Shown here: piece after piece, positions 1 to 61,355 of the stretch
Layout: the number at the start of each line of letters is the position of its first letter
How positions within the stretch are numbered: position 1 is the first letter of the stretch
Sequence record: NC_020079.1
Strand: one strand, 5' to 3'
Source: Escherichia phage phAPEC8
Length of the DNA stretch: 64,000 nt
Notes under the pieces: model-generated
Told to the model about the DNA's origin: nothing
Seen by the model: only the letters and a program-made list of their open reading frames with translations
Database searches by the model: none
Translations under genes and position numbers: made by a program

Positions 1-29
1 GGGCGCACCAAGCGCCCTTTCTTTTTATA
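1..29 (+). terminator. Rho-independent terminator (GGGCGCACCAAGCGCCC hairpin + T-run)
   Basis: GC stem-loop followed by TTTCTTTTT; identical copy at 5494-5520. Confidence 0.7.
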
Positions 30-47
30 TGTAGAGGATAAACAAAG

Positions 48-233
48 ATGACTTTAAGCGAGCTTAAAACAGCCTACAACGCAACGTTAAAAATAGCCGT
101 GCGTTACCGTGATGCGTATGGTTTTATCGCGCAGGGCGTGATCCTGGGCTTTTCTGACGATGGTTTGATCTATGTTGATGCACATCATAACAAGGTAAAA
201 CCTGAAAACGTCATTAGCATAAAATATCTTTAA
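48..233 (+). CDS. hypothetical small protein
   Basis: ATG ORF with upstream GAGGA SD-like sequence. Confidence 0.5.
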   Translation: MTLSELKTAYNATLKIAVRYRDAYGFIAQGVILGFSDDGLIYVDAHHNKVKPENVISIKYL

Positions 234-239
234 AAGTGG

Positions 240-268
240 TTGACACCATAACCGGACCTGTTAAACTG
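240..268 (+). promoter_or_regulatory. sigma70-like promoter (TTGACA, 17 bp, TAAACT) followed by GC hairpin
   Basis: -35/-10 hexamers read directly; GGGGAA..TTCCCC stem just downstream. Confidence 0.5.
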
Positions 269-318
269 TATTACATCAGGCGGGGAATAGTTCCCCACCA
301 TACAAAAAGGTAAATATC

Positions 319-525
319 ATGATCACAACAAAACAAGAAAAAATTATTACAGACATTGCCGCAGTAGCCGCTATTGCTATTATTGGTACCTACTATGACA
401 CCGCGCGTCCTTCCTCCTTGCATGAGGTCGCCGCCGTTGCATCAGTTGGCGTGCTGTTTTACGTTGGTAAACGCTATTTATCACCAATGATTAACAAGCT
501 GACACCGTGGAAAAATAAAGGTTGA
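319..525 (+). CDS. small hydrophobic (membrane) protein
   Basis: ORF; Ala/Ile/Val-rich stretches consistent with TM helices. Confidence 0.5.
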   Translation: MITTKQEKIITDIAAVAAIAIIGTYYDTARPSSLHEVAAVASVGVLFYVGKRYLSPMINKLTPWKNKG

Positions 526-576
526 TCCTGTTTTACATTGTGTTATAGTTATCGTGTAGGGCGGCAATGGTGCCGC
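522..576 (+). promoter_or_regulatory. promoter (TTGATC/TATAGT) plus conserved 5' hairpin GTAGGGCGGCAATGGTGCCGC
   Basis: hexamers with 16 bp spacer; 21-nt element repeated at 1787-1807 and 3202-3222. Confidence 0.55.
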
Positions 577-596
577 GCCCCTTTGAGGATGCAATC

Positions 597-881
597 ATGA
601 GTAAAGCTAACACCGTGCTAATGTTTTCCCTGATTAATGATCCCGCTTACTTGTCCAACATGACGCAGGAGGGTGACACATTAACGGCAACATTCACCAA
701 TAAGCTTGACCGAGTGATCATCATCTCACTGAAAACAGTTAGTAAAGGCTTTTACTCGTTAGCTTATCATTGGATCACCGATACCGATGAGACAAGCCAG
801 GACTATAGCGCCCCTTTCCCTGAATCAATGGCACGGGAGATCATCGCCGCCGTTGTAAATGATGGTTTGTTTACTGCATAA
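597..881 (+). CDS. hypothetical protein
   Basis: ORF; start moved to ATG 597 (GAGG SD) because track ATG 567 lies inside the 5' hairpin. Confidence 0.5.
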   Translation: MSKANTVLMFSLINDPAYLSNMTQEGDTLTATFTNKLDRVIIISLKTVSKGFYSLAYHWITDTDETSQDYSAPFPESMAREIIAAVVNDGLFTA

Positions 882-979
882 AATAATTCAGAAAAAGGCT
901 TGCAATCATTTTGGGATAATGTATATTTAATGCATAGGGCGGCGGGAATAGTTCCCAAAGCAAACGAGAGGATTACACG

Positions 980-1099
980 ATGAGCAAGTACACAGTAGAA
1001 TACACGGTAGAAAATCCGGCAGTATCCGAAGGTAAAAAGATGACATTTGCCATCAGTAAAATCGCTTTCGTTGTCACTATCTTATCAATCATCTTATAA
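980..1099 (+). CDS. small hydrophobic protein (39 aa)
   Basis: ATG ORF below track size cutoff, GAGAGG SD upstream, follows promoter+hairpin at 899-957. Confidence 0.4.
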   Translation: MSKYTVEYTVENPAVSEGKKMTFAISKIAFVVTILSIIL

Positions 1100-1109
1100 G
1101 GTGCATACC

Positions 1110-1271
1110 ATGAAAACAGCAGACATTATCAAAGAGATCGCCCTTGCCGCTGACGTTGAGATCGAGGAAGTGATCGCGCTCAATCTTACAGAAAACGATC
1201 TGCGCAACTATGAAGCGGAAAGCGTGAAAGCAAGCGGCGCGGTCCTGGCATATAATCCGGCTAACAAATAG
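1110..1271 (+). CDS. hypothetical small acidic protein
   Basis: internal ATG of track ORF 1047-1271 with AAGGTG SD. Confidence 0.45.
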   Translation: MKTADIIKEIALAADVEIEEVIALNLTENDLRNYEAESVKASGAVLAYNPANK

Positions 1272-1350
1272 TTTGACAAGCTGAATCAACCTGATAAGAT
1301 GTATCACATAGGGGCGACAAGCGCCCCGCCTAACAGAAGAGAGAAAAATC

Positions 1351-1629
1351 ATGACCATCGTTAAATTAACAACCGAAGAAATGAAAACAATGTTAACCAC
1401 TAATTTACAAAATTGGAAAATTGGTGTTGACGTTGAAACAGTGTGCAAGTTGAACGACAAACTAACACCGGACGACATTGAAACGATCATCCGTGCAGAT
1501 TTCTATGATGCTTTATACGATGATTCCACAGTCCTTGAAACGATGTTGGATAACGCTTGGATCAATCCCGATTTGGCGGCTTATGGTCATCTTGCCTTTG
1601 AAGCCATCCATAATGTTTATAATCGTTAA
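1351..1629 (+). CDS. hypothetical protein
   Basis: ORF after promoter (TTGACA 1272-1277) and GC hairpin; SD AGAGAGA. Confidence 0.55.
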   Translation: MTIVKLTTEEMKTMLTTNLQNWKIGVDVETVCKLNDKLTPDDIETIIRADFYDALYDDSTVLETMLDNAWINPDLAAYGHLAFEAIHNVYNR

Positions 1630-1639
1630 GGGGGATAAC

Positions 1640-1750
1640 ATGAATCCGAAAGATATGCAAGCATGGAAAGGGTACGACGATCTAAGCGCCTTGCGCAATA
1701 AGTCAAGCCGTAACCTTAGACGGTTGGAAGCAAAGAAAAAGAAAAAATAG
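1640..1750 (+). CDS. small basic protein (36 aa)
   Basis: ATG with strong SD AAGGGGGA; C-terminal part of track ORF 1478-1750. Confidence 0.4.
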   Translation: MNPKDMQAWKGYDDLSALRNKSSRNLRRLEAKKKKK

Positions 1751-1751
1751 T

Positions 1752-1807
1752 TTGACAAGTCCGCGTAGTCTGGTAATATGTATCTTGTAGGGCGGCAATG
1801 GTGCCGC
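1752..1807 (+). promoter_or_regulatory. promoter (TTGACA, 16 bp, TAATAT) plus conserved 5' hairpin GTAGGGCGGCAATGGTGCCGC
   Basis: hexamers and hairpin read directly. Confidence 0.6.
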
Positions 1808-1828
1808 TCACAAGAAGAGAGAAAAATC

Positions 1829-2113
1829 ATGAAAATCACAAAAAGCCTGACTAATTATGCAGCACGTCGCGGATTATGTTTAACCGTTGAAAACTTAGGG
1901 AAAGAAGACTTTTTGTGTTTTTGGGAGCTTGAAAATGATTGCGAATGGATGTTTTCTTATTCTATCTGCGAAGATCAAAACGGTTGTTTGTTAACCTGGC
2001 GCGGTAATATCTATTTACCGGAAGAAATTAAAGAAGAGCTACCAGGTACGATCATGACAGAGAGACAGCTTAAGGAAGTGATCAATTTTGTAGGGCAAAA
2101 CATTAAAAAATAA
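1829..2113 (+). CDS. hypothetical Cys-rich protein
   Basis: ATG with same leader (AGAAGAGAGAAAAATC) as gene at 1351. Confidence 0.5.
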   Translation: MKITKSLTNYAARRGLCLTVENLGKEDFLCFWELENDCEWMFSYSICEDQNGCLLTWRGNIYLPEEIKEELPGTIMTERQLKEVINFVGQNIKK

Positions 2114-2198
2114 TTTGACAGCAGGCAAACAACGTAGTAAAGTTTATTACATAGAGCGGCGGAATGGTCCACCGCTCACAACAGAAGAGAAACAAATC

Positions 2199-2369
2199 AT
2201 GATCCCGACTATGTTTTATGTATCGCGCAAAGGTCACAATATTTTTTGGTCTGAAGATTTAAATGAAGCTATGACGTTTGCCCGTGATCGTGTTGCTATC
2301 GGTGGCGTTAACATCACTGTAACCGATGAAAACGGTATTGAATACTATAACGGCGACGATGAAGAATAA
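2199..2369 (+). CDS. hypothetical small protein
   Basis: internal ATG of track ORF 2115-2369 after promoter/hairpin, conserved leader. Confidence 0.45.
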   Translation: MIPTMFYVSRKGHNIFWSEDLNEAMTFARDRVAIGGVNITVTDENGIEYYNGDDEE

Positions 2370-2446
2370 TTAATGAGGCGGGGGAGTATTCCCCGCCGTC
2401 AATAGGGCGGGGCAATAAGGCAACGCCCACTAATGAGGGTAAAATC

Positions 2447-2551
2447 ATGTTAGAGAAAATTTTCACGGTTGCAGTGGTTGGCCTGGCGTTATCGGTTGGA
2501 GTAGTTGCAACTATGGCTAACATGATCCTATCTTCCCACGGTATCGGTTAA
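2447..2551 (+). CDS. small hydrophobic peptide (34 aa)
   Basis: ATG ORF below cutoff; SD GAGGG; single TM-like segment. Confidence 0.35.
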   Translation: MLEKIFTVAVVGLALSVGVVATMANMILSSHGIG

Positions 2552-2561
2552 GGTGAAACAA

Positions 2562-2777
2562 ATGATCACGAACAAAACAGGCAAAACGGAATTTTTACGC
2601 GGCTTACAAGTTGGTAAACCTGAGATCTGGCATTGCACGAAGTCCGCGCATAACGAAATGAAAGATTTCACCGCTACTTTACAACGTGTTAAAATATCTA
2701 TTACGCAGAAAAAAGCCTTATTAGTAGTAGAAAACGAGATCCCGCAAACTATTATTATTGTCGAGCGTACAGCATGA
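2562..2777 (+). CDS. hypothetical protein
   Basis: track ORF 2553-2777; ATG 2562 preferred over GTG 2553. Confidence 0.45.
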   Translation: MITNKTGKTEFLRGLQVGKPEIWHCTKSAHNEMKDFTATLQRVKISITQKKALLVVENEIPQTIIIVERTA

Positions 2778-3160
2778 AAACAGAAATCATTATTGAAATC
2801 ATCAACGGCTATAAAGAAGCCTTTATTTTTGCTGAATCAGCAAGGGATCATGAAGGTAATTTTATTGATAACTTAGACGATTATGATTTTTCTCCTAGTG
2901 CGGATCAACGGATCGCCCAGGATGTAACAGCCTTTATTAATGCTAATCTTGCCGCTATCTCTGAGGCAATGAGCGACGGCGCAACAGCCAACCAGATCGG
3001 GAATGATTTACATTTTACCCGTAACAGTCACGGCGTAGGCTTTTGGGATCGCCCTGAAATATACACCACTAACACGGCGAACCGCCTAACCAATGCAGCT
3101 AAGTTTATGCCGAACGTGTCGGCTTACATTGGTGAAGATAATTTGATTTATATTGAATAA
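2774..3160 (+). CDS. hypothetical protein
   Basis: ORF, ATGA overlap with upstream gene. Confidence 0.5.
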   Translation: MKTEIIIEIINGYKEAFIFAESARDHEGNFIDNLDDYDFSPSADQRIAQDVTAFINANLAAISEAMSDGATANQIGNDLHFTRNSHGVGFWDRPEIYTTNTANRLTNAAKFMPNVSAYIGEDNLIYIE

Positions 3161-3166
3161 AAAGTA

Positions 3167-3222
3167 TTGACACAGATCGCCAGTGTGCTAATATTTACCA
3201 CGTAGGGCGGCAATGGTGCCGC
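3167..3222 (+). promoter_or_regulatory. promoter (TTGACA/TAATAT) plus conserved 5' hairpin GTAGGGCGGCAATGGTGCCGC
   Basis: third exact copy of the 21-nt hairpin element. Confidence 0.6.
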
Positions 3223-3241
3223 CGATAATGAGGAAAATAAA

Positions 3242-3541
3242 ATGGAAACTATCGCTATTGTTACCGTAGAAAAACTGGTTGTTGGTGATGTATTCGCGTT
3301 AATGGTACCTAACAGCAGCAAGCTGGGCGCTTATGAAGTGATGGATCATAAAAATGAATCATTTGGCGACGGTTGCACAATGGCGGTAAAATCCTTAAAG
3401 GATGGAATCATCCGTCAAGCTAATTGGCACAAAGGGAATCAAGTCGGATTAATATCAGCTAATTTCTTGCCAGAACAGCAAACGTTAGACCAACTATCAG
3501 GCGGTAAGACGTTAGCCGAACTACTGGAAACAGCGATCTAA
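3242..3541 (+). CDS. hypothetical protein
   Basis: ORF with SD GAGGAAAA. Confidence 0.55.
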   Translation: METIAIVTVEKLVVGDVFALMVPNSSKLGAYEVMDHKNESFGDGCTMAVKSLKDGIIRQANWHKGNQVGLISANFLPEQQTLDQLSGGKTLAELLETAI

Positions 3542-3585
3542 TCAACAAAGGGGCGGCAACGCCCCACATCAGAAAGGAAAAGATT

Positions 3586-3822
3586 ATGAGTATTGCAACA
3601 GTATTAACCGCCGTTAAAACCGCTGAATCATCCGGCTTGCATGTTGAGCTTATAGATCAACCAGGTGGCGATCTCCTTGTCCAGGTTTACCCGCCGAAAG
3701 TAGGGGATGATCATTATTGGTGTTATTCTGATACGTTCGAACAAGTAGACACGAAAGCGATCACAGCCTTTATTTTAAAAGCCGTTGAAGAAAATAACTT
3801 TCATTATAACATCAATCAATAA
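3586..3822 (+). CDS. hypothetical protein
   Basis: ORF preceded by GGGGCGGCAACGCCCC hairpin and A-rich SD. Confidence 0.5.
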   Translation: MSIATVLTAVKTAESSGLHVELIDQPGGDLLVQVYPPKVGDDHYWCYSDTFEQVDTKAITAFILKAVEENNFHYNINQ

Positions 3823-3876
3823 ACCATAAGCAGGGCGGTAACGCCCCATTAAACGCAATAGGAAGAGGATAGACGC

Positions 3877-4161
3877 ATGAAAAAGATGATCGCAGTAGTT
3901 GCCCTGGTTGTTGGTATTAACGCGCCTACACTGGCTAATGAGTTGCCAGAATCCATCACGCTAACCGACATCAACGCAGTGAATCGGATCGGTGTTAATT
4001 ATCGCCTATGCCTTGCCGCTAAAACTTTCCAGGACGGCACGACAGAGTACTACGGATTCGAGGGTATCCGCTGCGGTGAGCTTGCACGCGACCTTAAGGA
4101 AGATCCAGACCTTGAGGCCATACCGATGACCGTAAACGGTAAAGCCCACGTAAACCGCTAA
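3877..4161 (+). CDS. secreted/periplasmic small protein
   Basis: N-terminal signal-peptide-like MKKMIAVVALVVGINAPTLA. Confidence 0.55.
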   Translation: MKKMIAVVALVVGINAPTLANELPESITLTDINAVNRIGVNYRLCLAAKTFQDGTTEYYGFEGIRCGELARDLKEDPDLEAIPMTVNGKAHVNR

Positions 4162-4163
4162 CC

Positions 4164-4298
4164 ATGAGAAAGGTAATCATCACAATGGGGATCGTAGTAG
4201 CAACGCTGGCGCTTATCCCTTTCATGGTTGAACATGTGCTGATCAGTGTTGTCCTTGTAGTCAGTGACCTATTGGAAACGGTTGGCACCTGGTTTTAA
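4164..4298 (+). CDS. small membrane peptide (44 aa)
   Basis: ATG ORF below cutoff; hydrophobic; terminator-like hairpin + T-run at about 4307-4332. Confidence 0.35.
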   Translation: MRKVIITMGIVVATLALIPFMVEHVLISVVLVVSDLLETVGTWF

Positions 4299-4550
4299 GA
4301 TAATAAATAGGGCTTGCAATAGTCCTATTTTTTGTTATACTTGTTGAACGGGCGGCACCTGGGAGCAGGGGAAGATAATCACCGGAAGACTCCGCTATAT
4401 ATTGATAACTAACGCCTATCAAACAACAAAACATCAAAGTAACAAACTATCAAATCTTTACAATTCCACCTATTGACACCGGATCACGCTTACACTATTA
4501 TTTATCACGTAGGGCGAGCAATACAGCAAGCCCACAAAGAGGAAAATAAA

Positions 4551-4919
4551 ATGAGCAAATCAGCAATTAAAGCACTTGAAAAAGCACAAAAAGTGATCGC
4601 CACTTCCACCACTGGCACAAGTATTAATCTGGTCGCTTACTTGGAAGATGAAACTATCCGTAAAAATTGGCGTAATGCTGATTTACTGGCTTGCTTGTTG
4701 ATTAATAGTGTCGCTAATGCTTTCCAGTGTGAAACAGCCGAGAGCCTAGAACAAAACTTGTTCGATAATATGGACCAAGCAATTGAAACATATATCCAAT
4801 CTAATTTGGACAGCTGGAACAGTAAAACATGGCCTGACAGCTTACGCGATACAACTGATCAACTGATCCGCCTTGCCCTGATGGTTGAACGCGATAACGT
4901 TTACAACAGCACAAAGTAA
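4551..4919 (+). CDS. hypothetical protein
   Basis: internal ATG with SD AGAGGAAAA; track ATG 4473 lies inside the TTGACA promoter. Confidence 0.5.
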   Translation: MSKSAIKALEKAQKVIATSTTGTSINLVAYLEDETIRKNWRNADLLACLLINSVANAFQCETAESLEQNLFDNMDQAIETYIQSNLDSWNSKTWPDSLRDTTDQLIRLALMVERDNVYNSTK

Positions 4920-5058
4920 GATTATACAAGGGCGCACTAAGCGCCCTTTAACGTAAAGAAATGTAAATAATGCGCTATTCCCTATTGACAGGGGATCGGC
5001 GTTATATTATATTTAACTCACTGGCAGCAAACAACGAAACGAAACAAAGGACAACACC

Positions 5059-5478
5059 ATGAACATTAAATCAAATAATCCGGCTTACTCCTTCGATAAC
5101 GCTTTTTGTCACGGTAGCGCCGCCAAAGGCTTCGAAATCGATGGTAAATTGGTTATCGTGAACGTTGACGGGGAAGAGGTTGCAGTATATCCGGTAAACG
5201 ATGTTAAAAGCCGTTTACAATGCCGCATGGATGTTACCGCATATCAGCTTGATCCGATCCGTGTAGTTGCCCTGGTATTAGAGGAAGAGATCAAAGCAAT
5301 GCATCACAGCAATAAGTTTATTGGTGACGCGCAGGATAATATGAACGTTTGCCGCCATAAAGTTAATGAAGCACTGAAAGAATGCGGTTTTAAGGATCTG
5401 ATGATCAAACGTGATGAAAAATTCCGCTTTCGTAATGACCTGGCAAACCGGATCTACTCAATCTATGAAGCGTTATAA
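5059..5478 (+). CDS. hypothetical protein
   Basis: ORF after promoter TTGACA 4985-4990. Confidence 0.55.
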   Translation: MNIKSNNPAYSFDNAFCHGSAAKGFEIDGKLVIVNVDGEEVAVYPVNDVKSRLQCRMDVTAYQLDPIRVVALVLEEEIKAMHHSNKFIGDAQDNMNVCRHKVNEALKECGFKDLMIKRDEKFRFRNDLANRIYSIYEAL

Positions 5479-5493
5479 TTGACAACAAAACAA

Positions 5494-5520
5494 GGGGCGC
5501 ACCAAGCGCCCTTTCTTTTT
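5494..5520 (+). terminator. Rho-independent terminator, identical to 1-29
   Basis: GGGCGCACCAAGCGCCC + TTTCTTTTT. Confidence 0.7.
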
Positions 5521-7020
5521 GCCCGAACAATGTTGATAGCTTTCGCCTATGAAAAACCGACACAGAACAAAATTGAATAAATCGCGGTATCGAGCTAATC
5601 AACCATTAAACGAATAACCATACCTCCCAGGGTAACAGGCTGTTAGAGAGCCATTTAAAGCGGTTAAAATCGATCAACAACCAACAACAAACCATCAAAA
5701 ACACCCTTTTACCTCCTTTCTAGTGCAATGATAACCATTATCATCTATCCATGTTTATCTATGCAATATAAGTGCATAACTATAATGTTGATAATAGTTC
5801 GCAACAACTAACTAACCAACAACCTAAAACAATAAGCAAACTAATCATAATCAAAGGAATAATAGCAAGATGATTGATAACGACAAACAATCAAACCATG
5901 ATGAATACTAAGCAAGATAACGATAACACGACAAAACAACCAACTAACGAACAATAACAAACGAAACCATTAAAATAACAACTATTAGCAAAATAGTGCC
6001 TGAATGAAATCATTACAAAACGAATCATTCACAGGATCATCATTAGCACGCTATGCCGGACACATAGCGAGCTAATAATAAGCCAACTACACCCCAACAA
6101 TCATAACCATCGGTGATGGTTATTTCTTGTTACTGCGTAGCTTGCAATAATTGCAAGCGTAATTACGCTTACACTTATTGCGCTGGCTTATTATTAGCAT
6201 TATATGTAATTACCAAGATCATAACATTAGCGCAATAACAATAATCATTGTGGTAATTACAAGATGAGATCATTAGCAAGATGAATAATTGCACGTAGCA
6301 ACATGAGCGAATAGCGACAGGTTGCATAGTGTGCACATAGTGTATAAACATACAAGAAAATAAAGGCTAATCTTTTGGGGGCGAATACTATCGCGTAGCG
6401 ATATGTTGAGCACCTTCTCTTAAACGTAAATAAAATCAGAATAATCTTGATTTATTTTAGTTTTTATGTTAATAAACGTTTAAATAATAATCATTCTCAT
6501 ATAAATAATAGTCCGTTTGTCATGAGCGGGATTAGTTGACAGTGTTCCGTCATATGATGAAGTTGCCAACCCCTTGATAAATAAGCCTTTGTGTGATTTA
6601 TAATCAAGTGGCCCACCTTGTCGCTACGTTGGCATGAAGCTTGCATAAGTCATTGAATACGAATGATAATTATTCTCATTCGCATGATATTTGGGAATTG
6701 TCGCTGCGTGGACCTGACGGCCCGAAAATTCGCGTTAAGCACTTCTTACGTATACGCCATGATTTTTGCCATATGATATTGATTCTATTAGATATTCTTG
6801 CCATGATTGCCATGAAACAGGGTGTCCCGAAATAATCTCTCCCCGTAGATATTTTGGGTTACTTTTTATACAAGAGTGGGGTGTCAAAAATAATCGGTAT
6901 ATATGGGATAATTGATAGGAATCCCCTATGATAATTCGATTGTAATTCCCTAAGATTGATCGTATGATGTTGGTGATTGATGATTGCCATGAAAGATGGC
7001 TAACGATGAGAGGAGATTAT
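5521..7020. other. ORF-poor, A+C-skewed, palindrome-rich non-coding region
   Basis: no credible ORF; CAACAA-type low complexity; palindromes GCGTAATTACGC, TTGCAATAATTGCAA; repeated CATTAGCA and TTGCCATGA motifs. Confidence 0.6.
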
Positions 7021-7021
7021 C

Positions 7022-7366
7022 ATGCAAGAGAGTAAAAATGTTCCGTTGAGTAGTTTACGTCTAATGAAGTTTTACAAAGCTTGGCTTGCTGGTGAGGTAG
7101 AAGGTCACACAACGAGTGGCTTGTGCATATGTTTGATTAAGTATGTAGAGGGAACATATCCTGATGAACTGTTACCTCGTCTACAACAGGAGATGAAATC
7201 ACAGTTTATTGGTGCAGGACTGGATTACAATTTCCCGTTTAATGAAGGTGGTTATGAGGAATACACCTTCGAACATAAAAAACATATTTGCCATAAAAAC
7301 AAACATCGTATACAATGGGTGCTAGATAGAATTCAAGATTACGAAGGAGAGAAAAATGACAAATAG
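7022..7366 (+). CDS. paralog family A member 1 (FY..W / GLC / GL..PFN / R..WV.DR motifs)
   Basis: ORF with SD; shared motifs with six other ORFs. Confidence 0.6.
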   Translation: MQESKNVPLSSLRLMKFYKAWLAGEVEGHTTSGLCICLIKYVEGTYPDELLPRLQQEMKSQFIGAGLDYNFPFNEGGYEEYTFEHKKHICHKNKHRIQWVLDRIQDYEGEKNDK

Positions 7367-7724
7367 TATTCCGTTGAGCAGTGCAACATTGCTTCGCTTC
7401 TATAAAGCATGGATTGCCAACTATCCTGCAATGAATCGCACAACGAGTGGCTTATGTGGTTGTCTGGTAGATTATGTAGATGATTTTGTTGGTGAGACAA
7501 CTAGAGAAGAAGATAGAAGATGGCGGGATAGTTTGTTGGACCGTTTGAAATATGAAATGAGGAAACAATTTACATGTGCAGGGCTGGACTATAATCTTCC
7601 GTTCAATGCAGATTGCATGGATTACCTTTCAGAGTGTATAAACTTGGCGTGTCATACCAACACGTTACGTCTTCAATGGGTGAAAGACAGAATTGAAGAT
7701 GCAAATAATGCTTGCATTGAATAA
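7356..7724 (+). CDS. paralog family A member 2
   Basis: LLRFYKAWI, SGLCGCL, AGLDYNLPFN, RLQWVKDRI. Confidence 0.6.
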   Translation: MTNSIPLSSATLLRFYKAWIANYPAMNRTTSGLCGCLVDYVDDFVGETTREEDRRWRDSLLDRLKYEMRKQFTCAGLDYNLPFNADCMDYLSECINLACHTNTLRLQWVKDRIEDANNACIE

Positions 7725-7773
7725 AAATGTCTGTATAGTGGATGACATAACAGATAGCCAATGAGGAGATGAA

Positions 7774-7983
7774 ATGAAGAATTTGAAAACTGTCACAATG
7801 TTCTTGACTGATCCTACACGTGTGCAAGCACTGGCTAAAGCCAGCCGTGTAGCTGTAGAATTCCAAAACTTTAAGCCGTCCGTTGTGACAGGCAGTGAAA
7901 CGTGTGTTATCGATTTCATTAACGAATACTTCCGAGGGAATCCGGTTAGTCGTTACTTCATTAAGGGTCTGAAGGATGCATAA
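7774..7983 (+). CDS. hypothetical protein
   Basis: ORF with SD GAGGAG. Confidence 0.5.
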   Translation: MKNLKTVTMFLTDPTRVQALAKASRVAVEFQNFKPSVVTGSETCVIDFINEYFRGNPVSRYFIKGLKDA

Positions 7984-7984
7984 T

Positions 7985-8206
7985 ATGAAACGCATGAAAA
8001 TTCGTATTGAGAATGATGGTGGTTATAAAGGATTGGCACATGCAAAATTTCCACTTGTGTTGGAAGCTACGGTGGAATACAGTGGGCTTGCTCATGTGCG
8101 ATTCTCGAAGATGATGGAAGTGCAGGAATGGTTTTGGGACGAGATAGATGCACGAGAAGGAGAAGATTATGTTTTCTTTCCTCACGAATATAACATTGTC
8201 TATTAA
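7985..8206 (+). CDS. paralog family B member 1 (W.W..E...G.DYVFF motif)
   Basis: C-terminal motif shared with 11486-11707; second ATG chosen to avoid overlap. Confidence 0.5.
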   Translation: MKRMKIRIENDGGYKGLAHAKFPLVLEATVEYSGLAHVRFSKMMEVQEWFWDEIDAREGEDYVFFPHEYNIVY

Positions 8207-10775: not shown

Positions 10776-11090
10776 ATGTCAGAGGAACTTAAAGAATTTT
10801 ATCAAGCATATCATAACTGGCTGTTAGCTGGTGCTCCAGACAATAATCCTTTCTGGCATGATAAAGGTTTGTGCAGTTGCCTCTATCTTTGGTCTGGTGG
10901 TTATGATGATCTAAATTATGAAATGCAAATGCAATTCCGCGAAGCAGGATTGTCTGAAGAATACCCGTTTGATGACGGAGACTGGTTTAAATATGATTTT
11001 GCACAAAGAAACGGGCTATTGCATTTGAATGCTGCCCGTATAAAATGGGTAAAAGATCATGCTACACAGGAGGATGTGCAATGCCAATAG
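10776..11090 (+). CDS. paralog family A member 3
   Basis: EFYQAYHNWL, KGLCSCL, AGLSEEYPFD, RIKWVKDH. Confidence 0.6.
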   Translation: MSEELKEFYQAYHNWLLAGAPDNNPFWHDKGLCSCLYLWSGGYDDLNYEMQMQFREAGLSEEYPFDDGDWFKYDFAQRNGLLHLNAARIKWVKDHATQEDVQCQ

Positions 11091-13766: not shown

Positions 13767-14039
13767 ATGAATAAAGATCGGTTTCTTTCTTTAGTCGCGG
13801 AAGCTCCTTTTGATGTTCTTGGGGTGAGATTATGGAAAGACAGAAACTATGGGTTAGATGTTCAAACATACTCTCTTTGGTTGGTTGGGGAACACAGCTT
13901 AGATGAAAGCTTGTGCATGGGTAGGGATTCTCGTTCCCTCTGTTTAAAGTTCAGAAGCTTAGAACGCGCAAACAAAGAGCAAGAAAAACTAACGAGGTGG
14001 CTAAATGAAAACAAGCGCAAGGTTGATGGAGTTTTATAA
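13767..14039 (+). CDS. hypothetical protein
   Basis: ORF after promoter TTGACA 13707-13712; SD AAGGTGG. Confidence 0.5.
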   Translation: MNKDRFLSLVAEAPFDVLGVRLWKDRNYGLDVQTYSLWLVGEHSLDESLCMGRDSRSLCLKFRSLERANKEQEKLTRWLNENKRKVDGVL

Positions 14040-14331
14040 AATTTATCTAGCATGGATTGATGTTGGTGCTCCTGATGGTAAACCTTTTCGGCGGGATTGC
14101 GGTTTGTGTGCCAACTTATTCGACTATGTGCACGCGGATGGCTACAATCCCCTTATAACAACCTTGTCAGATGAAATGCACGCACAGTTTTACCACAAAG
14201 GGTTGAGTCAAGAATTACCCTTCAATGAGAACTACGATGCATATGTCTTAGAATCAGATGCAGAGGTATGTCACCTGAATGTGGACAGGATTAATTGGGT
14301 AAGAGATCGTATTGCAGAGGAGGATGAATAA
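14005..14331 (+). CDS. paralog family A member 4
   Basis: MEFYKIYLAWI, CGLCANL, KGLSQELPFN, RINWVRDRI. Confidence 0.6.
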   Translation: MKTSARLMEFYKIYLAWIDVGAPDGKPFRRDCGLCANLFDYVHADGYNPLITTLSDEMHAQFYHKGLSQELPFNENYDAYVLESDAEVCHLNVDRINWVRDRIAEEDE

Positions 14332-14558: not shown

Positions 14559-14773
14559 TCATGTGGATTGTGCGTCTTAAGTATGATGGCAAGTTTCCGT
14601 GGGAGAAAGATGTTTGTGCTTGTGATTCGGCAGCACATGCCAAAGCAGCGGGTCAGGCAGTAGTTGACATGTATAACAACACTTCCGTTGATCCAGAAAT
14701 GGCAGGTGTTACAATGAGCATGTTCACTTACTATTCTTTTGAGGTTTACTATCATGAAGGAGAGTGGAAATGA
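14555..14773 (+). CDS. hypothetical protein
   Basis: ORF, overlaps neighbours by 4 nt. Confidence 0.5.
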   Translation: MIMWIVRLKYDGKFPWEKDVCACDSAAHAKAAGQAVVDMYNNTSVDPEMAGVTMSMFTYYSFEVYYHEGEWK

Positions 14774-15090
14774 GCGAAGAACTATTAACATTTTACCGCA
14801 CGTATTTGGCATGGTTGGAAGCTGGTGCTCCTGAAGGCGAACCGTTCACCCGTTGCACAGGTTTGTGCTCGAACCTCTATGATTTTTACGATATGGGTGA
14901 AAGCGAACGATACGAACCCGTACTGGATGAAATGCATGAGCAGTTCTACCACAAAGATTTGGTTATGGTGTTGCCTTTCAACAGTAATTTTGGAAAGTAC
15001 ACCTTAGAAGCGGAAAAAAGCCGTTGTCATTTGAATGTGGATCGTGTGAACTGGGTAAAAGAACGTGTAGCAGAAGAAATAAATAGTTGA
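14770..15090 (+). CDS. paralog family A member 5
   Basis: MSEELLTFYRTYLAWL, TGLCSNL, LPFN, RVNWVKERV; ATG chosen over GTG 14764. Confidence 0.6.
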   Translation: MSEELLTFYRTYLAWLEAGAPEGEPFTRCTGLCSNLYDFYDMGESERYEPVLDEMHEQFYHKDLVMVLPFNSNFGKYTLEAEKSRCHLNVDRVNWVKERVAEEINS

Positions 15091-23455: not shown

Positions 23456-23490
23456 GTAGCAATAAAACCCGCTTCGGCGGGTTTTTTCAT
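23456..23490 (+). terminator. Rho-independent terminator
   Basis: AACCCGCTTCGGCGGGTT hairpin + TTTTTT. Confidence 0.7.
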
Positions 23491-23780: not shown

Positions 23781-23812
23781 ATAGAAAAGGCACCCACTTG
23801 GGTGCCTTTGTT
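23781..23812. terminator. bidirectional terminator at convergent junction
   Basis: AGGCACCCACTTGGGTGCCT hairpin with T-rich tracts on both strands. Confidence 0.6.
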
Positions 23813-28131: not shown

Positions 28132-28221
28132 AATATTTCTCCTCTATTGGTTGATAGGTTAAGTTTATCAAGCTTCCAGATTCCTGTCAATAAAAAACCC
28201 GCCGAAGCGGGTTATTATTTA

Positions 28222-42654: not shown

Positions 42655-42694
42655 AATCCTCCTCAATAAAAAGGGGCTGAAGCCCCTAGTTTCA

Positions 42695-48765: not shown

Positions 48766-48815
48766 TAATATAAAATTTTTGTCAATAAAAAAGGGAGCAA
48801 TAAGCTCCCTGATTA

Positions 48816-59142: not shown

Positions 59143-59214
59143 GGCCCTGTAGCTCAATGGGAGAGCTGTCGGCTCATAACCGATAGGTAGCTGGATCGAA
59201 ACCAGCCAGGGCCA
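59143..59214 (+). tRNA. tRNA-Met (anticodon CAT)
   Basis: manual cloverleaf: acceptor GGCCCTG/CAGGGCC, loop CTCATAA, T-loop GATCGAA, CCA encoded. Confidence 0.75.
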
Positions 59215-59219
59215 CCAAC

Positions 59220-59291
59220 GTCTTTATGGTGTAATGGATAGCACAGGAGTCTTCTAAACTCTTAGTCAAGGTTCGATTCCTTGTAAAGACA
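59220..59291 (+). tRNA. tRNA-Arg (anticodon TCT)
   Basis: acceptor GTCTTTA/TAAAGAC, loop CTTCTAA, T-loop TTCGATT. Confidence 0.7.
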
Positions 59292-59528
59292 CCAGAACAT
59301 TTTAACATGAATTAGCTCAAGTGATTTGAACCCACTACTGATCATGGTGGCAGAGAATGAGGCAAGTATGTCAGACATTATAAACAAAGGCCACGGTTAC
59401 ATTAGAAGACATAAATGCTCGAAGAGCACCGTTCGTGGAGAACGGGGGTTGGTGGAGTCACCATTCATGGTAAAATGTTTTAAAAAACTATTGACAACTA
59501 ACATTATTTTATGTTAGATTATAAGTAT

Positions 59529-59616
59529 GGAAGGGCAAATCGACGTGGCGACGAAAACGGTCTTGAAAACCGCCGAGCTTGAAAGAGCCTTGGGAGTTCG
59601 ACTCTCCCTCCTTCCG
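59529..59616 (+). tRNA. tRNA-Ser (anticodon TGA), type II
   Basis: long variable arm; loop CTTGAAA; T arm GGGAG-TTCGACT-CTCCC. Confidence 0.7.
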
Positions 59617-59623
59617 CCAGATT

Positions 59624-59706
59624 GGTAGATTGGTGAAATGGTAGCCACGACAGTTTGCTAAACTGTAGTCGGAAACGGCGTGTAGGTTCGAGTCCTACAT
59701 CTACCG
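59624..59706 (+). tRNA. tRNA-Ser (anticodon GCT), type II
   Basis: acceptor GGTAGAT/ATCTACC; stem ACAGT/ACTGT loop TTGCTAA; long variable arm. Confidence 0.7.
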
Positions 59707-59836
59707 CCAAGTTGTTTTTAATGTAGCGTTGCGGCTACTTACTTTAGCAGAGTAAATCTTCGGCAAGTGGCGGTAACCACTTTACCGATACCGCATAGTC
59801 AGTAAGGCGAATACTGGCTACTTTAAAAACAATTTT

Positions 59837-59917
59837 GTGAGATTGGCAGAGTGGTCGATTGCGGGGGACTGTAAATCCCTTCTGAAAGGCGCGGTGGTTC
59901 GAATCCATCATCTCACA
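59837..59917 (+). tRNA. tRNA-Tyr (anticodon GTA), type II
   Basis: acceptor GTGAGAT/ATCTCAC; loop CTGTAAA; long variable arm. Confidence 0.7.
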
Positions 59918-59926
59918 CCAAATTAA

Positions 59927-60009
59927 GATGAGTTGGCTGAATGGTTTAAGCGGCGGACTGTTAATCCGTGTTCGAAAGAACGATATAGGTTCAAATCCTA
60001 TACTCATCG
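59927..60009 (+). tRNA. tRNA-Asn-like (anticodon GTT) with 15-nt variable arm
   Basis: anticodon arm GCGGA-CTGTTAA-TCCGT matches E. coli tRNA-Asn; extra GTTC-GAAA-GAAC hairpin in variable region. Confidence 0.55.
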
Positions 60010-60019
60010 CCAGAATTAT

Positions 60020-60096
60020 GGACTTGTAGAGTTAAGGTAAACCCCCAGTCGCCAAGAGGCTTCTGGAATTGCAGGTATCGAATCCTGCCGAGTCCC
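60020..60096 (+). tRNA. tRNA-like element, non-canonical, anticodon unresolved
   Basis: 7-bp acceptor GGACTTG/CGAGTCC and T-arm-like GCAGG..CCTGC, but no canonical anticodon arm and 8-nt T-loop. Confidence 0.3.
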
Positions 60097-60102
60097 AGCT
60101 TT

Positions 60103-60174
60103 GCTCCTATAGTATAATGGCTATTACAACGGTTTTGTAATCCGTGGATCTCTGTTCGATTCAGAGTGGGAGCA
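60103..60174 (+). tRNA. tRNA-Thr (anticodon TGT)
   Basis: acceptor GCTCCTA/TGGGAGC; loop TTTGTAA; T arm CTCTG-TTCGATT-CAGAG. Confidence 0.65.
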
Positions 60175-60452
60175 CCAACACAACATTAAGGGCACTGTGA
60201 TTGATCGTCGTATCCTGTGCACAAGGTCTGTTCGAAAGACAGTGTTCTTAGTATTGTGTTGATCACACAAAAAGAGTTACCTGAAACTTGACCGGAGTAG
60301 GGTTGGATGGGGCAAAAGAAGAAGCGGCTCTCCCATCGACAGCAACGAAGAATAATATTTGACTTTGGTTTTGTATTATTTTAAGTTAGCTTACCGAACG
60401 TAGGGCTAGTCACCCAACGGGATACTCGTCACTGTCCCACTCAATAAAACTA

Positions 60453-60483
60453 TTGACAACCAATAGTAAAATGTAGTATAGTA
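60453..60483 (+). promoter_or_regulatory. promoter (AACTATTGACAA ... TAGTAT) upstream of tRNA-Gly
   Basis: -35 TTGACA, 16 bp spacer, -10-like hexamer. Confidence 0.5.
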
Positions 60484-60493
60484 AAGATGTAGG

Positions 60494-60564
60494 GCGTTCT
60501 TGGTGTAGCGGTAGCATTCCGTCCTTCCAAGTCGGCGGCACGAGTTCGATCCTCGTAGAACGCT
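60494..60564 (+). tRNA. tRNA-Gly (anticodon TCC)
   Basis: acceptor GCGTTCT/AGAACGC; D-loop AGCGGTAG; loop CTTCCAA; T arm ACGAG-TTCGATC-CTCGT. Confidence 0.7.
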
Positions 60565-60666
60565 CCAAATTATTTAATAAAGGGTTGCCAGAAAACTTTC
60601 TCTTTTACTCATGGTTTTCTCCTTCTCTCACACCTCTTCTGGTTGCCCTTCATTAAATGATTTATT

Positions 60667-60739
60667 GGTTTGTAGTGTAGTCCGGTAGCACACGACACTT
60701 TGACTGTCGTAGGTTTGGTTCAAATCCAGACAGACCAGC
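60667..60739 (+). tRNA. tRNA-Gln (anticodon TTG)
   Basis: acceptor TGGTTTG/CAGACCA; stem CGACA/TGTCG loop CTTTGAC. Confidence 0.7.
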
Positions 60740-60834
60740 CATATAACAAAGGTGAGTCACTACCTCAAGTGTGAAGTTAAAAACGAGGAGCCGCCGAACA
60801 CTTTCTTTTGCGGCGTACCTTTAGAATGTTATGA

Positions 60835-60908
60835 CGGAATTTAGCTCAGTTTGGTAGAGTGTACGCTTTGGGAGCGTATTGTCGCAGGTTCGAATCCTGC
60901 AATTCCGA
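60835..60908 (+). tRNA. tRNA-Pro (anticodon TGG)
   Basis: acceptor CGGAATT/AATTCCG; D arm TAGCTCAGTTTGGTAGAG; loop TTTGGGA; T arm GCAGG-TTCGAAT-CCTGC. Confidence 0.8.
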
Positions 60909-60917
60909 CCAATTAAA

Positions 60918-60988
60918 TGTTTCGTAGTTCAATGGTAGAACCCACGACTGATAATCGTGAGATACAAGTTCGATTCTTGTCGAAACAA
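60918..60988 (+). tRNA. tRNA-Ile (anticodon GAT)
   Basis: acceptor TGTTTCG/CGAAACA; stem CACGA/TCGTG loop CTGATAA. Confidence 0.75.
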
Positions 60989-60993
60989 CCAGT

Positions 60994-61062
60994 TTCCCGT
61001 TAGACTTACAGGATAAGAGTTCCACAATTTATTGTGACGCTGGTTCGAATCCAGCACGGGAT
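60994..61062 (+). tRNA. degenerate tRNA-like element (possible tRNA pseudogene)
   Basis: 6-bp acceptor TCCCGT/ACGGGA and canonical T arm GCTGG-TTCGAAT-CCAGC, but anticodon region is a palindrome with no 7-nt loop. Confidence 0.3.
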
Positions 61063-61069
61063 ACATAAT

Positions 61070-61145
61070 AGCGGGATAGAGGAGTCTGGTCGTCCTCGCC
61101 AGTTTCATATGCTGGAGATCATTGGTTCAAATCCAATTCCCGCCT
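61070..61145 (+). tRNA. tRNA with CAT anticodon (Met, initiator or Ile-lysidine)
   Basis: D arm GAGG..CCTC; stem CCAGT/GCTGG loop TTCATAT; A1-C72 mismatch. Confidence 0.6.
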
Positions 61146-61355
61146 CCAAATATCGCTTGCCAGCGGTATCTTTGAAGACCTTGCCTGGTTCCTTCTAAGA
61201 TGGAGGGGTGCGACTCCTTAACGCACAATTATAATAAAGCATTTCAAATTAACAGTATTTATTAGCCTCCTTATTGGAGGCTTTTTGCTATCTATTGAAT
61301 AAAACTTGACTTATTATTTTTTATATGTTAAGATAAAGTTTAGGAGGATTTTATT

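Follow-up and report, generated by a model that had tools for sequence, protein, structure and literature searches.

The first 5,520 nucleotides (nt) of a 64,000-nt stretch of the Escherichia phage phAPEC8 genome (NC_020079.1; the whole stretch is called the window here) hold a block of small genes, many of them preceded by the same kind of intergenic cassette. Filling about 80 nt between the stop codon of one gene and the ATG of the following one, this cassette joins a host sigma70 promoter, often with an extended −10, to a GC-rich hairpin placed at a fixed distance downstream. The evidence points to a hairpin, fixed relative to the transcription start site, as the object of selection; it speaks against a terminator or a rigid operator in this role. 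We read the element as a modular early-expression cassette whose 5′ hairpin would shield messenger RNA (mRNA) from RppH and RNase E and whose repetition would drive gene shuffling, a reading that we favor with moderate confidence.

The window shows 96% identity to phAPEC8-like phages (Phapecoctavirus, Stephanstirmvirinae), and for positions 1 to 7000 the identity is 94 to 97%. The 18 small open reading frames (ORFs) of the block, 1-5520, all lie on the + strand, and all 18 match PHROG families. None of these families has an assigned function, and one is labeled only as "membrane protein". Sigma70-type promoters have been placed in the short-hypothetical-gene region of the genomes of rV5 (PMC3606486) and of a Certrevirus (PMC7344957), and by analogy with these genome papers we infer that 1-5520 is an early region. 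One rV5 gene product, gp11, carries an annotation as an Srd homologue (PMC3606486). A preliminary description of this DNA, made from the letters alone, had the block bracketed by two identical terminators, and this is the case: the same 26-nt intrinsic terminator (GGGCGCACCAAGCGCCC plus a T-run, + strand) lies at 1-26 and at 5495-5520. The first copy closes a preceding early block of like units, which is visible in relatives (500-4390 in locus L001), and the second marks the end of the block.

A consensus scan placed promoter-like sites with a TTGACA-type −35 element, scoring 10 to 11 out of 12, at 240, 1273, 1752, 2115, 3167, 4473, and 4985, and weaker sites (9 out of 12) at 522, 900, and 4314. 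Behind eight promoters lies a GC hairpin, its stem starting 10 to 12 nt past the −10 hexamer and its minimum free energy between −7.8 and −15.9 kcal/mol. Compared with dinucleotide shuffles, six of these eight promoter-proximal hairpins have z scores of −3.0 or below; the weaker two are those at 556 (z −1.18) and 934 (z −1.42). By one fixed criterion, 7 of the 12 strong promoter-like sites in 1-7000 have a 5′-proximal hairpin, compared with 3.6% of random positions in the window (P ~5e-8) and 6.2% in the block (P ~2e-6). When the loci of eight relatives are added to the window, the count is 82 of 144 strong promoter-like sites. Perfect GC-rich hairpins are themselves concentrated here: 8 of the 22 in the window fall within the first 5.5 kilobases (kb), and those elsewhere are mostly terminators with UUCG or GAAG loops and T-runs.

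The preliminary description had given this architecture to nearly every gene. The architecture is real, but its frequency was overstated, since only 8 of the 18 ORFs (starts 319, 597, 980, 1351, 1829, 2199, 3242, and 4551) have both a promoter and a hairpin. Three (2447, 3586, and 3877) follow hairpins without a promoter, four such hairpins in all; one (5059) has a promoter without a hairpin; and six (48, 1110, 1640, 2562, 2774, and 4164), packed against the preceding ORF, have neither. The promoterless hairpins, the spread over two subfamilies, the covariation of the stems, and the insertion-deletion (indel) junctions at cassettes all go beyond that first description.

The eight complete cassettes, all on the + strand, are as follows. 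Cassette 1 (240-299) has its −35 TTGACA at 240 and an extended −10, TAAACT, ending at 267; its hairpin (279-299; −12.5 kcal/mol, z −3.59) precedes ORF 319-525. Cassette 2 (522-579; −35 TTGATC, −10 TATAGT ending at 549) leads ORF 597-881, with a 21-nt element at 556-576 and its hairpin, one of the weaker two, at 559-579. The other weaker hairpin (939-961; −7.8 kcal/mol) belongs to cassette 3 (900-961), which has a TTGCAA/TATATT promoter and ATAGGGCGG at 934 and leads ORF 980-1099. Cassette 4 (1273-1327; TTGACA/TAAGAT) precedes ORF 1351-1629 with the hairpin GGGGCG-ACAAG-CGCCCC at 1311-1327. Cassette 5 (1752-1811; TTGACA/TAATAT) carries the 21-nt element at 1787-1807, within a hairpin that pairs from the predicted +1 (1787-1811; −15.1 kcal/mol, z −4.35), and leads ORF 1829-2113. 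ORF 2199-2369 is led by cassette 6 (2115-2177; TTGACA/TAAAGT), whose hairpin at 2154-2177 contains a C.A mismatch, and ORF 3242-3541 by cassette 7 (3167-3223; TTGACA/TAATAT), with the 21-nt element at 3202-3222 and a hairpin at 3206-3223. Finally, cassette 8 (4473-4535; TTGACA/TATTAT; hairpin 4509-4535, −11.5 kcal/mol, z −5.18) leads ORF 4551-4919. The 21-nt element, GTAGGGCGGCAATGGTGCCGC, had been reported in three identical copies, and its exact matches are indeed limited to these three, which start on the + strand at 556, 1787, and 3202. A search of the 64 kb that allowed as many as three mismatches brought no further match, nor did any of 100 shuffled sequences contain one.

In relatives, the annotated start codon lies within a hairpin in one case (ATG 567) and at a −35 box in another (TTG 2115). 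These deposited starts are probably too far upstream, because the PHROG profiles fit end to end from ATG 597 and ATG 2199.

Past the −10 box, the aligned units share the consensus GTATCAC-R-TAGGGCGG. This consensus has a pyrimidine-purine step 7 to 8 nt past the −10 box, the place at which E. coli RNA polymerase normally starts. Judged from the sequence, the start is probably the conserved purine 8 nt past this box, so that the predicted RNA would begin R-U-A and then enter the stem. Among the 82 promoter-linked hairpins, the first paired base lies 10 to 12 nt after the −10 hexamer in 57 and 7 to 9 nt after it in 24, and in the latter group additional outer pairs extend to the predicted +1. 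Relative to the −10 box, this geometry gives 0 to 4 unpaired nt at the predicted 5′ end. The fixed offset of 10 to 12 nt corresponds to about +3 to +5 of the predicted transcript, as a role at the 5′ end would require. Such a fixed distance from the start site argues for a function tied to the 5′ end. On its other side, the hairpin ends about 5 to 10 nt ahead of the Shine-Dalgarno sequence. Leaders measure 14 to 23 nt from hairpin to ATG (30 nt in one promoterless unit). Their A content is 52%, whereas that of the block is 32%; T makes up only 13% of them, and T-runs are absent. Intrinsic terminators are defined by a hairpin with an immediate U-tract, and no T-run follows the cassette hairpins, in agreement with the earlier view that they are not terminators of this kind. 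Because the hairpin lies downstream of the −10 box in a fixed register, would be part of its own transcript, and has no U-tract, a terminator role is unlikely.

Forty-six hand-checked units were used for the analysis of arms, alignment, and length. These units include 40 to 41 distinct hairpins in 17 inner-arm classes, such as GGCGGCA/TGCCGCC, GGCGGGAA/TTCCCGCC, GGGGCG/CGCCCC, and GGGGCAA/TTGCCCC. In an arm-swap test, cognate arms folded with a mean of −11.3 kcal/mol and swapped arms with −7.95 kcal/mol, and none of 2,000 permutations was as good as the real pairing. The loops are diverse (19 sequences of 3 to 8 nt), hairpins are anywhere from about 15 to 37 nt long, and the GGCGG and CCGCC halves have no fixed spacing. 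The varied spacing of the halves, the variable loops, and the covarying arms argue for a folded single strand and not for a rigid duplex operator. MAFFT with RNAalifold gave no consensus structure for the 46 units, because their stems and loops differ in length, and an Rfam scan of 1-8000 found no family match, only a single sub-threshold chance hit. The 5′ half of the element is nearly invariant across subfamilies: G13 and G15 are invariant, and A10, C14, and G16 are each conserved in at least 90%.

The cassette also occurs in other phages. In Schickermooser the same arrangement fills the intergenic regions at a uniform 78 to 97 nt; it is also present between genes in phi92 (Justusliebigvirus) and FV3 (Vequintavirus) and, more sparsely, in FENT2 (Seunavirus). 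A BLAST search with one cassette returned 144 phage records, which belong to these lineages as judged by organism name and by five loci whose taxonomy was checked. In a gapped pattern scan of IMG/VR, multicopy arrays occurred only in contigs of about 97 to 153 kb, and single matches came mostly from one unrelated phage family of about 40 kb without the hairpin. The cassette is a family common to Stephanstirmvirinae and Vequintavirinae. The pattern TTGACA...TAnnnT...TAGGGCGG plus a stable hairpin was also seen in unrelated IMG/VR contigs, namely, L014, L015, and L037 (26 to 48 kb), L035, L056, and the 279-kb contig L016. To go by these sequences, promoter-fused 5′ hairpins may exist in further phage groups.

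Collinear BLAST comparison of positions 1 to 5600 with five close relatives revealed six distinct indel sites. At 1270|1631, cassette 4 and its ORF (1271-1630) are missing in two relatives. Indels recur at 2382-2404, a hot spot at which each of the five relatives is longer by 75 to 482 nt; in the window, the hairpin at 2405 has been left without its promoter, which was lost exactly ahead of ATAGGGCGG. Cassette 7 is a recombination junction (overlap 3188-3253): where the window has one hybrid cassette, relatives have two cassettes with an additional ORF between them. An extra ORF between two cassettes is likewise found in relatives at 4499-4516, in cassette 8, with the junction in TATCACGTAGGGCG. 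A fifth indel, at 4238-4307, lies at a terminator/promoter, and the sixth, at 2551|2769, is the sole indel outside the cassettes. At five of the six sites, one end or both fall in a cassette element, and such elements make up about 14% of the block (rough binomial P ~0.006). A mosaic pattern is likewise seen when leaders and hairpins of phi92 are compared with those of the window. On these comparisons, cassettes appear to mark where related phages swap genes.

T4-like phages have a comparable element, the promoter-early stem-loop (PeSL) cassette (Arbiol et al. 2010, PMC2839356; Comeau et al. 2014, PMC4122927). Each of the two is a cassette of about 70 to 100 nt, repeated between genes, that unites a near-consensus sigma70 promoter (identified here by consensus scan), a GC stem-loop, and a Shine-Dalgarno sequence, and each stands ahead of small ORFs without known function in an early region that is hyperplastic. 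The indel junctions between close relatives fall in cassettes in both systems, where they flank variable ORFs, and degraded "half" cassettes lie near indels (PMC2839356, PMC4122927). They differ in the placement of the hairpin. The PeSL stem-loop lies between the −35 and −10 elements or over the −10, at a variable position, and terminates upstream transcription (PMC2839356), whereas the stem described here keeps a fixed register, beginning 10 to 12 nt downstream of the −10, would be transcribed as the 5′ end of its own mRNA, and lacks a U-tract. The phage lineages that carry the two elements also differ, T4-like phages in one case and Stephanstirmvirinae and Vequintavirinae in the other, and the two share no sequence similarity.

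How might the hairpin act? It would form at the 5′ end of early mRNAs, leaving 0 to 4 unpaired nt, and would block RppH and the 5′-sensor pathway of RNase E, giving the mRNA a longer life. An open, A-rich ribosome-binding region with its Shine-Dalgarno sequence would follow, and then the small ORF. Transcripts of T7 gene 10 start with a stabilizing stem-loop of their own. RppH and RNase E both need single-stranded 5′ termini (reviewed in PMC3997798), and this requirement accounts for the stabilization conferred by 5′ secondary structures such as those of ompA and papA (PMC3997798). The ompA and papA stabilizers (Emory, Bouvet, Belasco 1992, cited in PMC3997798) share with the cassette a stable hairpin that leaves few nt or none unpaired at the 5′ end, predicted in our case, and an unstructured ribosome-binding region behind it. 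They are single, experimentally tested elements, whereas here there are more than 15 promoter-fused copies per genome with a conserved RTAGGGCGG, and the role would be the same by analogy. Among possible mechanisms for the hairpin, mRNA stabilization is probably the best supported, by comparison with known 5′ stem-loops of this kind. Promoterless copies would be intercistronic stabilizers or cassette relics, and the repeated cassettes would serve as substrates for homologous recombination, by which small early ORFs could be inserted, deleted, or swapped, as happens with PeSL cassettes in T4-like phages. The promoterless hairpins at 2374-2428, 3550, and 3833 are, like intercistronic REP-type stabilizers, GC hairpins between cistrons without a T-run; they bear no resemblance to the REP consensus, however, and most copies of the element are promoter linked.

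Several observations weigh against mRNA stabilization as the whole explanation. With four hairpins lacking a promoter, a strictly 5′-terminal role cannot account for all copies, and conversely the same genome has strong promoters without a hairpin at 4985, 15087, 16569, and 20602. A test for the sense strand of the RNA was weak, with 15 G.U pairs on the + strand and 9 on the − strand and with strand energies of −12.7 and −12.0 kcal/mol (P ~0.05, from nonindependent units). In E. coli, only a minority of mRNAs decay by an RppH-dependent route (PMC3997798), and a literature search on phAPEC8, rV5, Vequintavirinae, and Phapecoctavirus found no start-site, RNA-seq, or half-life data. Finally, the 5′ half, RTAGGGCGG, is conserved more than hairpin formation alone needs, which leaves room for a specific binding factor or for concerted evolution via recombination.

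The strongest of the alternatives, though itself improbable in our estimate, is that RTAGGGCGG and the hairpin are together recognized by a protein of the phage or the host. Such a protein could repress or activate early mRNAs by binding to the RNA, or it could be an antiterminator of the nut/boxB type; the site could also be a DNA operator by which early promoters are shut off. A near-invariant 5′ half, a fixed position adjoining +1, and confinement to one phage lineage would all suit a protein site. Its difficulty lies in the 19 loop sequences and 17 covarying arm classes, in a hairpin length that rules out the fixed half-site spacing required by a dimeric operator, and in the failure of direct sequence reading to find a boxA-like element with the hairpin or of Rfam to supply a match. 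Lambdoid nut sites also place a small hairpin in the leader of a phage early transcript, downstream of an early promoter, but their boxB loop is conserved, bound by N, and accompanied by boxA, and the cassettes differ further in being present in many copies, one per small gene. The preliminary description had itself offered a regulator-binding site as an alternative, an idea that the variable loops and stems weaken and that the strong conservation of the 5′ half leaves standing.

We consider it still less probable that the hairpins are transcription attenuators or insulators that limit read-through from upstream, in the manner of PeSL stem-loops. An RB49 PeSL stem-loop placed before lacZ cut expression as much as rrnB T1 did (PMC2839356), and the promoterless hairpins at 2374, 3550, and 3833 lie directly past stop codons. 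Most hairpins lie downstream of their own promoter, however, at a fixed +3 to +5, so that attenuation would also stop their own transcripts. They lack a U-tract, and the genuine terminators of this genome look different and bracket the block.

A similarly low probability attaches to the proposal that the hairpin has no role in expression and persists because it promotes recombination or is carried along by it, either in a mobile cassette of the selfish kind or because gene conversion makes the copies evolve in concert. Junctions do fall in cassettes, at times exactly at the start of TAGGGCGG (2402/2403, 4499-4516); three identical 21-nt cores lie within flanks that are only 63 to 75% identical; and the mosaic leaders and hairpins fit the same idea. 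Homology-driven recombination alone would not be expected to produce 17 classes of covarying arms or a fixed offset from the −10 box, and the junctions are scattered over the cassette instead of falling at one site.

It is about equally doubtful that the GC-rich initial transcribed sequence and the hairpin, as it emerges, tune promoter escape or pausing close to the promoter, which could, for example, link transcription to ribosome loading. The fixed position from about +3 and the end of the hairpin shortly before the Shine-Dalgarno sequence are consistent with this idea. Direct reading of the initial transcribed region revealed no −10-like pause element, however, and the promoterless copies are left unexplained. 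In studies of T5 N25 and N25anti, GC-rich initial sequences reportedly tend to impair escape, which also counts against a tuning role.

There is, in our view, only a slim chance that RTAGGGCGG and the hairpin serve as the handle of a dedicated system, in which a phage-encoded factor would recognize them on early RNAs or DNA and either govern all early mRNAs together or catalyze cassette exchange; if true, this would make the cassettes an integron-like gene-cassette platform in virulent phages of Stephanstirmvirinae and Vequintavirinae. Two further candidates were rejected, an RNase III target, as the stems are just 6 to 11 base pairs, and an N4-type hairpin promoter, as every hairpin considered follows a consensus sigma70 promoter at a fixed spacing.

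The block contains further elements, all on the + strand. Two promoterless hairpins, at 2374-2401 and 2405-2428, lie upstream of ORF 2447-2551 (−33.9 kcal/mol, z −4.86 for 2374-2428). Another, GGGGCG-GCAA-CGCCCC at 3550-3565 (−14.1 kcal/mol, z −4.55), sits between the stop codon of ORF 3242-3541 and ORF 3586-3822, and a fourth at 3833-3846 (−10.3 kcal/mol, z −1.83) precedes ORF 3877-4161. In the segment 4305-4400, a terminator (4305-4330) overlaps a TTGCAA/TATACT promoter (4314-4341), and an indel junction falls here in relatives. Downstream of this promoter, a longer conserved GC structure starts at 4349 with CGGGCGGCAC. After this CGGGCGGCAC...CCGCTATATAT structure, about 70 nt of A/C-rich noncoding sequence run up to the next promoter, and the arrangement of 4305-4472 is kept in five Phapecoctavirus relatives and in Vequintavirus FV3. 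This segment may encode a small RNA or a long leader. A third copy of the bracketing terminator, a variant without a T-run (77% match), lies at 4930-4955 (hairpin 4928-4948). The strong promoter at 4985-5013 (11 out of 12), followed by no hairpin (0 kcal/mol), leads ORF 5059-5478.

Beyond the block, positions 5521-7020 form about 1.5 kb without a convincing ORF, A/C rich and containing short tandem repeats as well as palindromes (6062-6207, 6144-6181). Many relatives have deposited genomes whose ends correspond to about 6250-6740, which suggests that the region may serve as a terminus, in packaging, or as an origin. Five paralogous small proteins (about 104 to 122 amino acids) with a motif of the type ...FY..YLAW...GLC.CL...LPFN... 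are encoded at 7022-7366, 7356-7724, 10776-11090, 14005-14331, and 14764-15090, with no hairpin cassette upstream. Terminators outside the early block have UUCG or GAAG tetraloops (23464-23485, 23786-23809, 28196-28213, 42672-42687, 48792-48810, and others), and several of them are bidirectional, since they have T-runs on both strands. Eleven tRNA genes are clustered at 59143-61148. The sequence GTAGGGCGT after a promoter at 60453 was considered as a link between the cassette and a tRNA-like element and rejected: it overlaps the 5′ end of tRNA-Gly and is a one-mismatch, chance-level match.

Stabilizing 5′ hairpins and promoter-stem-loop recombination linkers are both known concepts, and earlier papers have already listed sigma70 promoters for this group of phages (PMC3606486, PMC7344957). 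The combination with the hairpin and its placement are new; our literature search, of incomplete coverage, found neither the linked hairpin nor the motif string described, and no account of shuffling by cassettes in this group. The cassette supplies compact natural parts, each a promoter, 5′ hairpin, and ribosome-binding site, and it corrects start-codon calls in deposited genomes. It also provides a testable rule for how a large group of coliphages that are candidates for therapy (phAPEC8-, phi92-, and rV5-like) express and exchange their numerous small early genes, whose functions are not known. The idea developed for PeSL, that regulatory cassettes act as recombination linkers, thus reaches beyond T4-like phages, and the different placement of the hairpin implies that its primary function is a different one.

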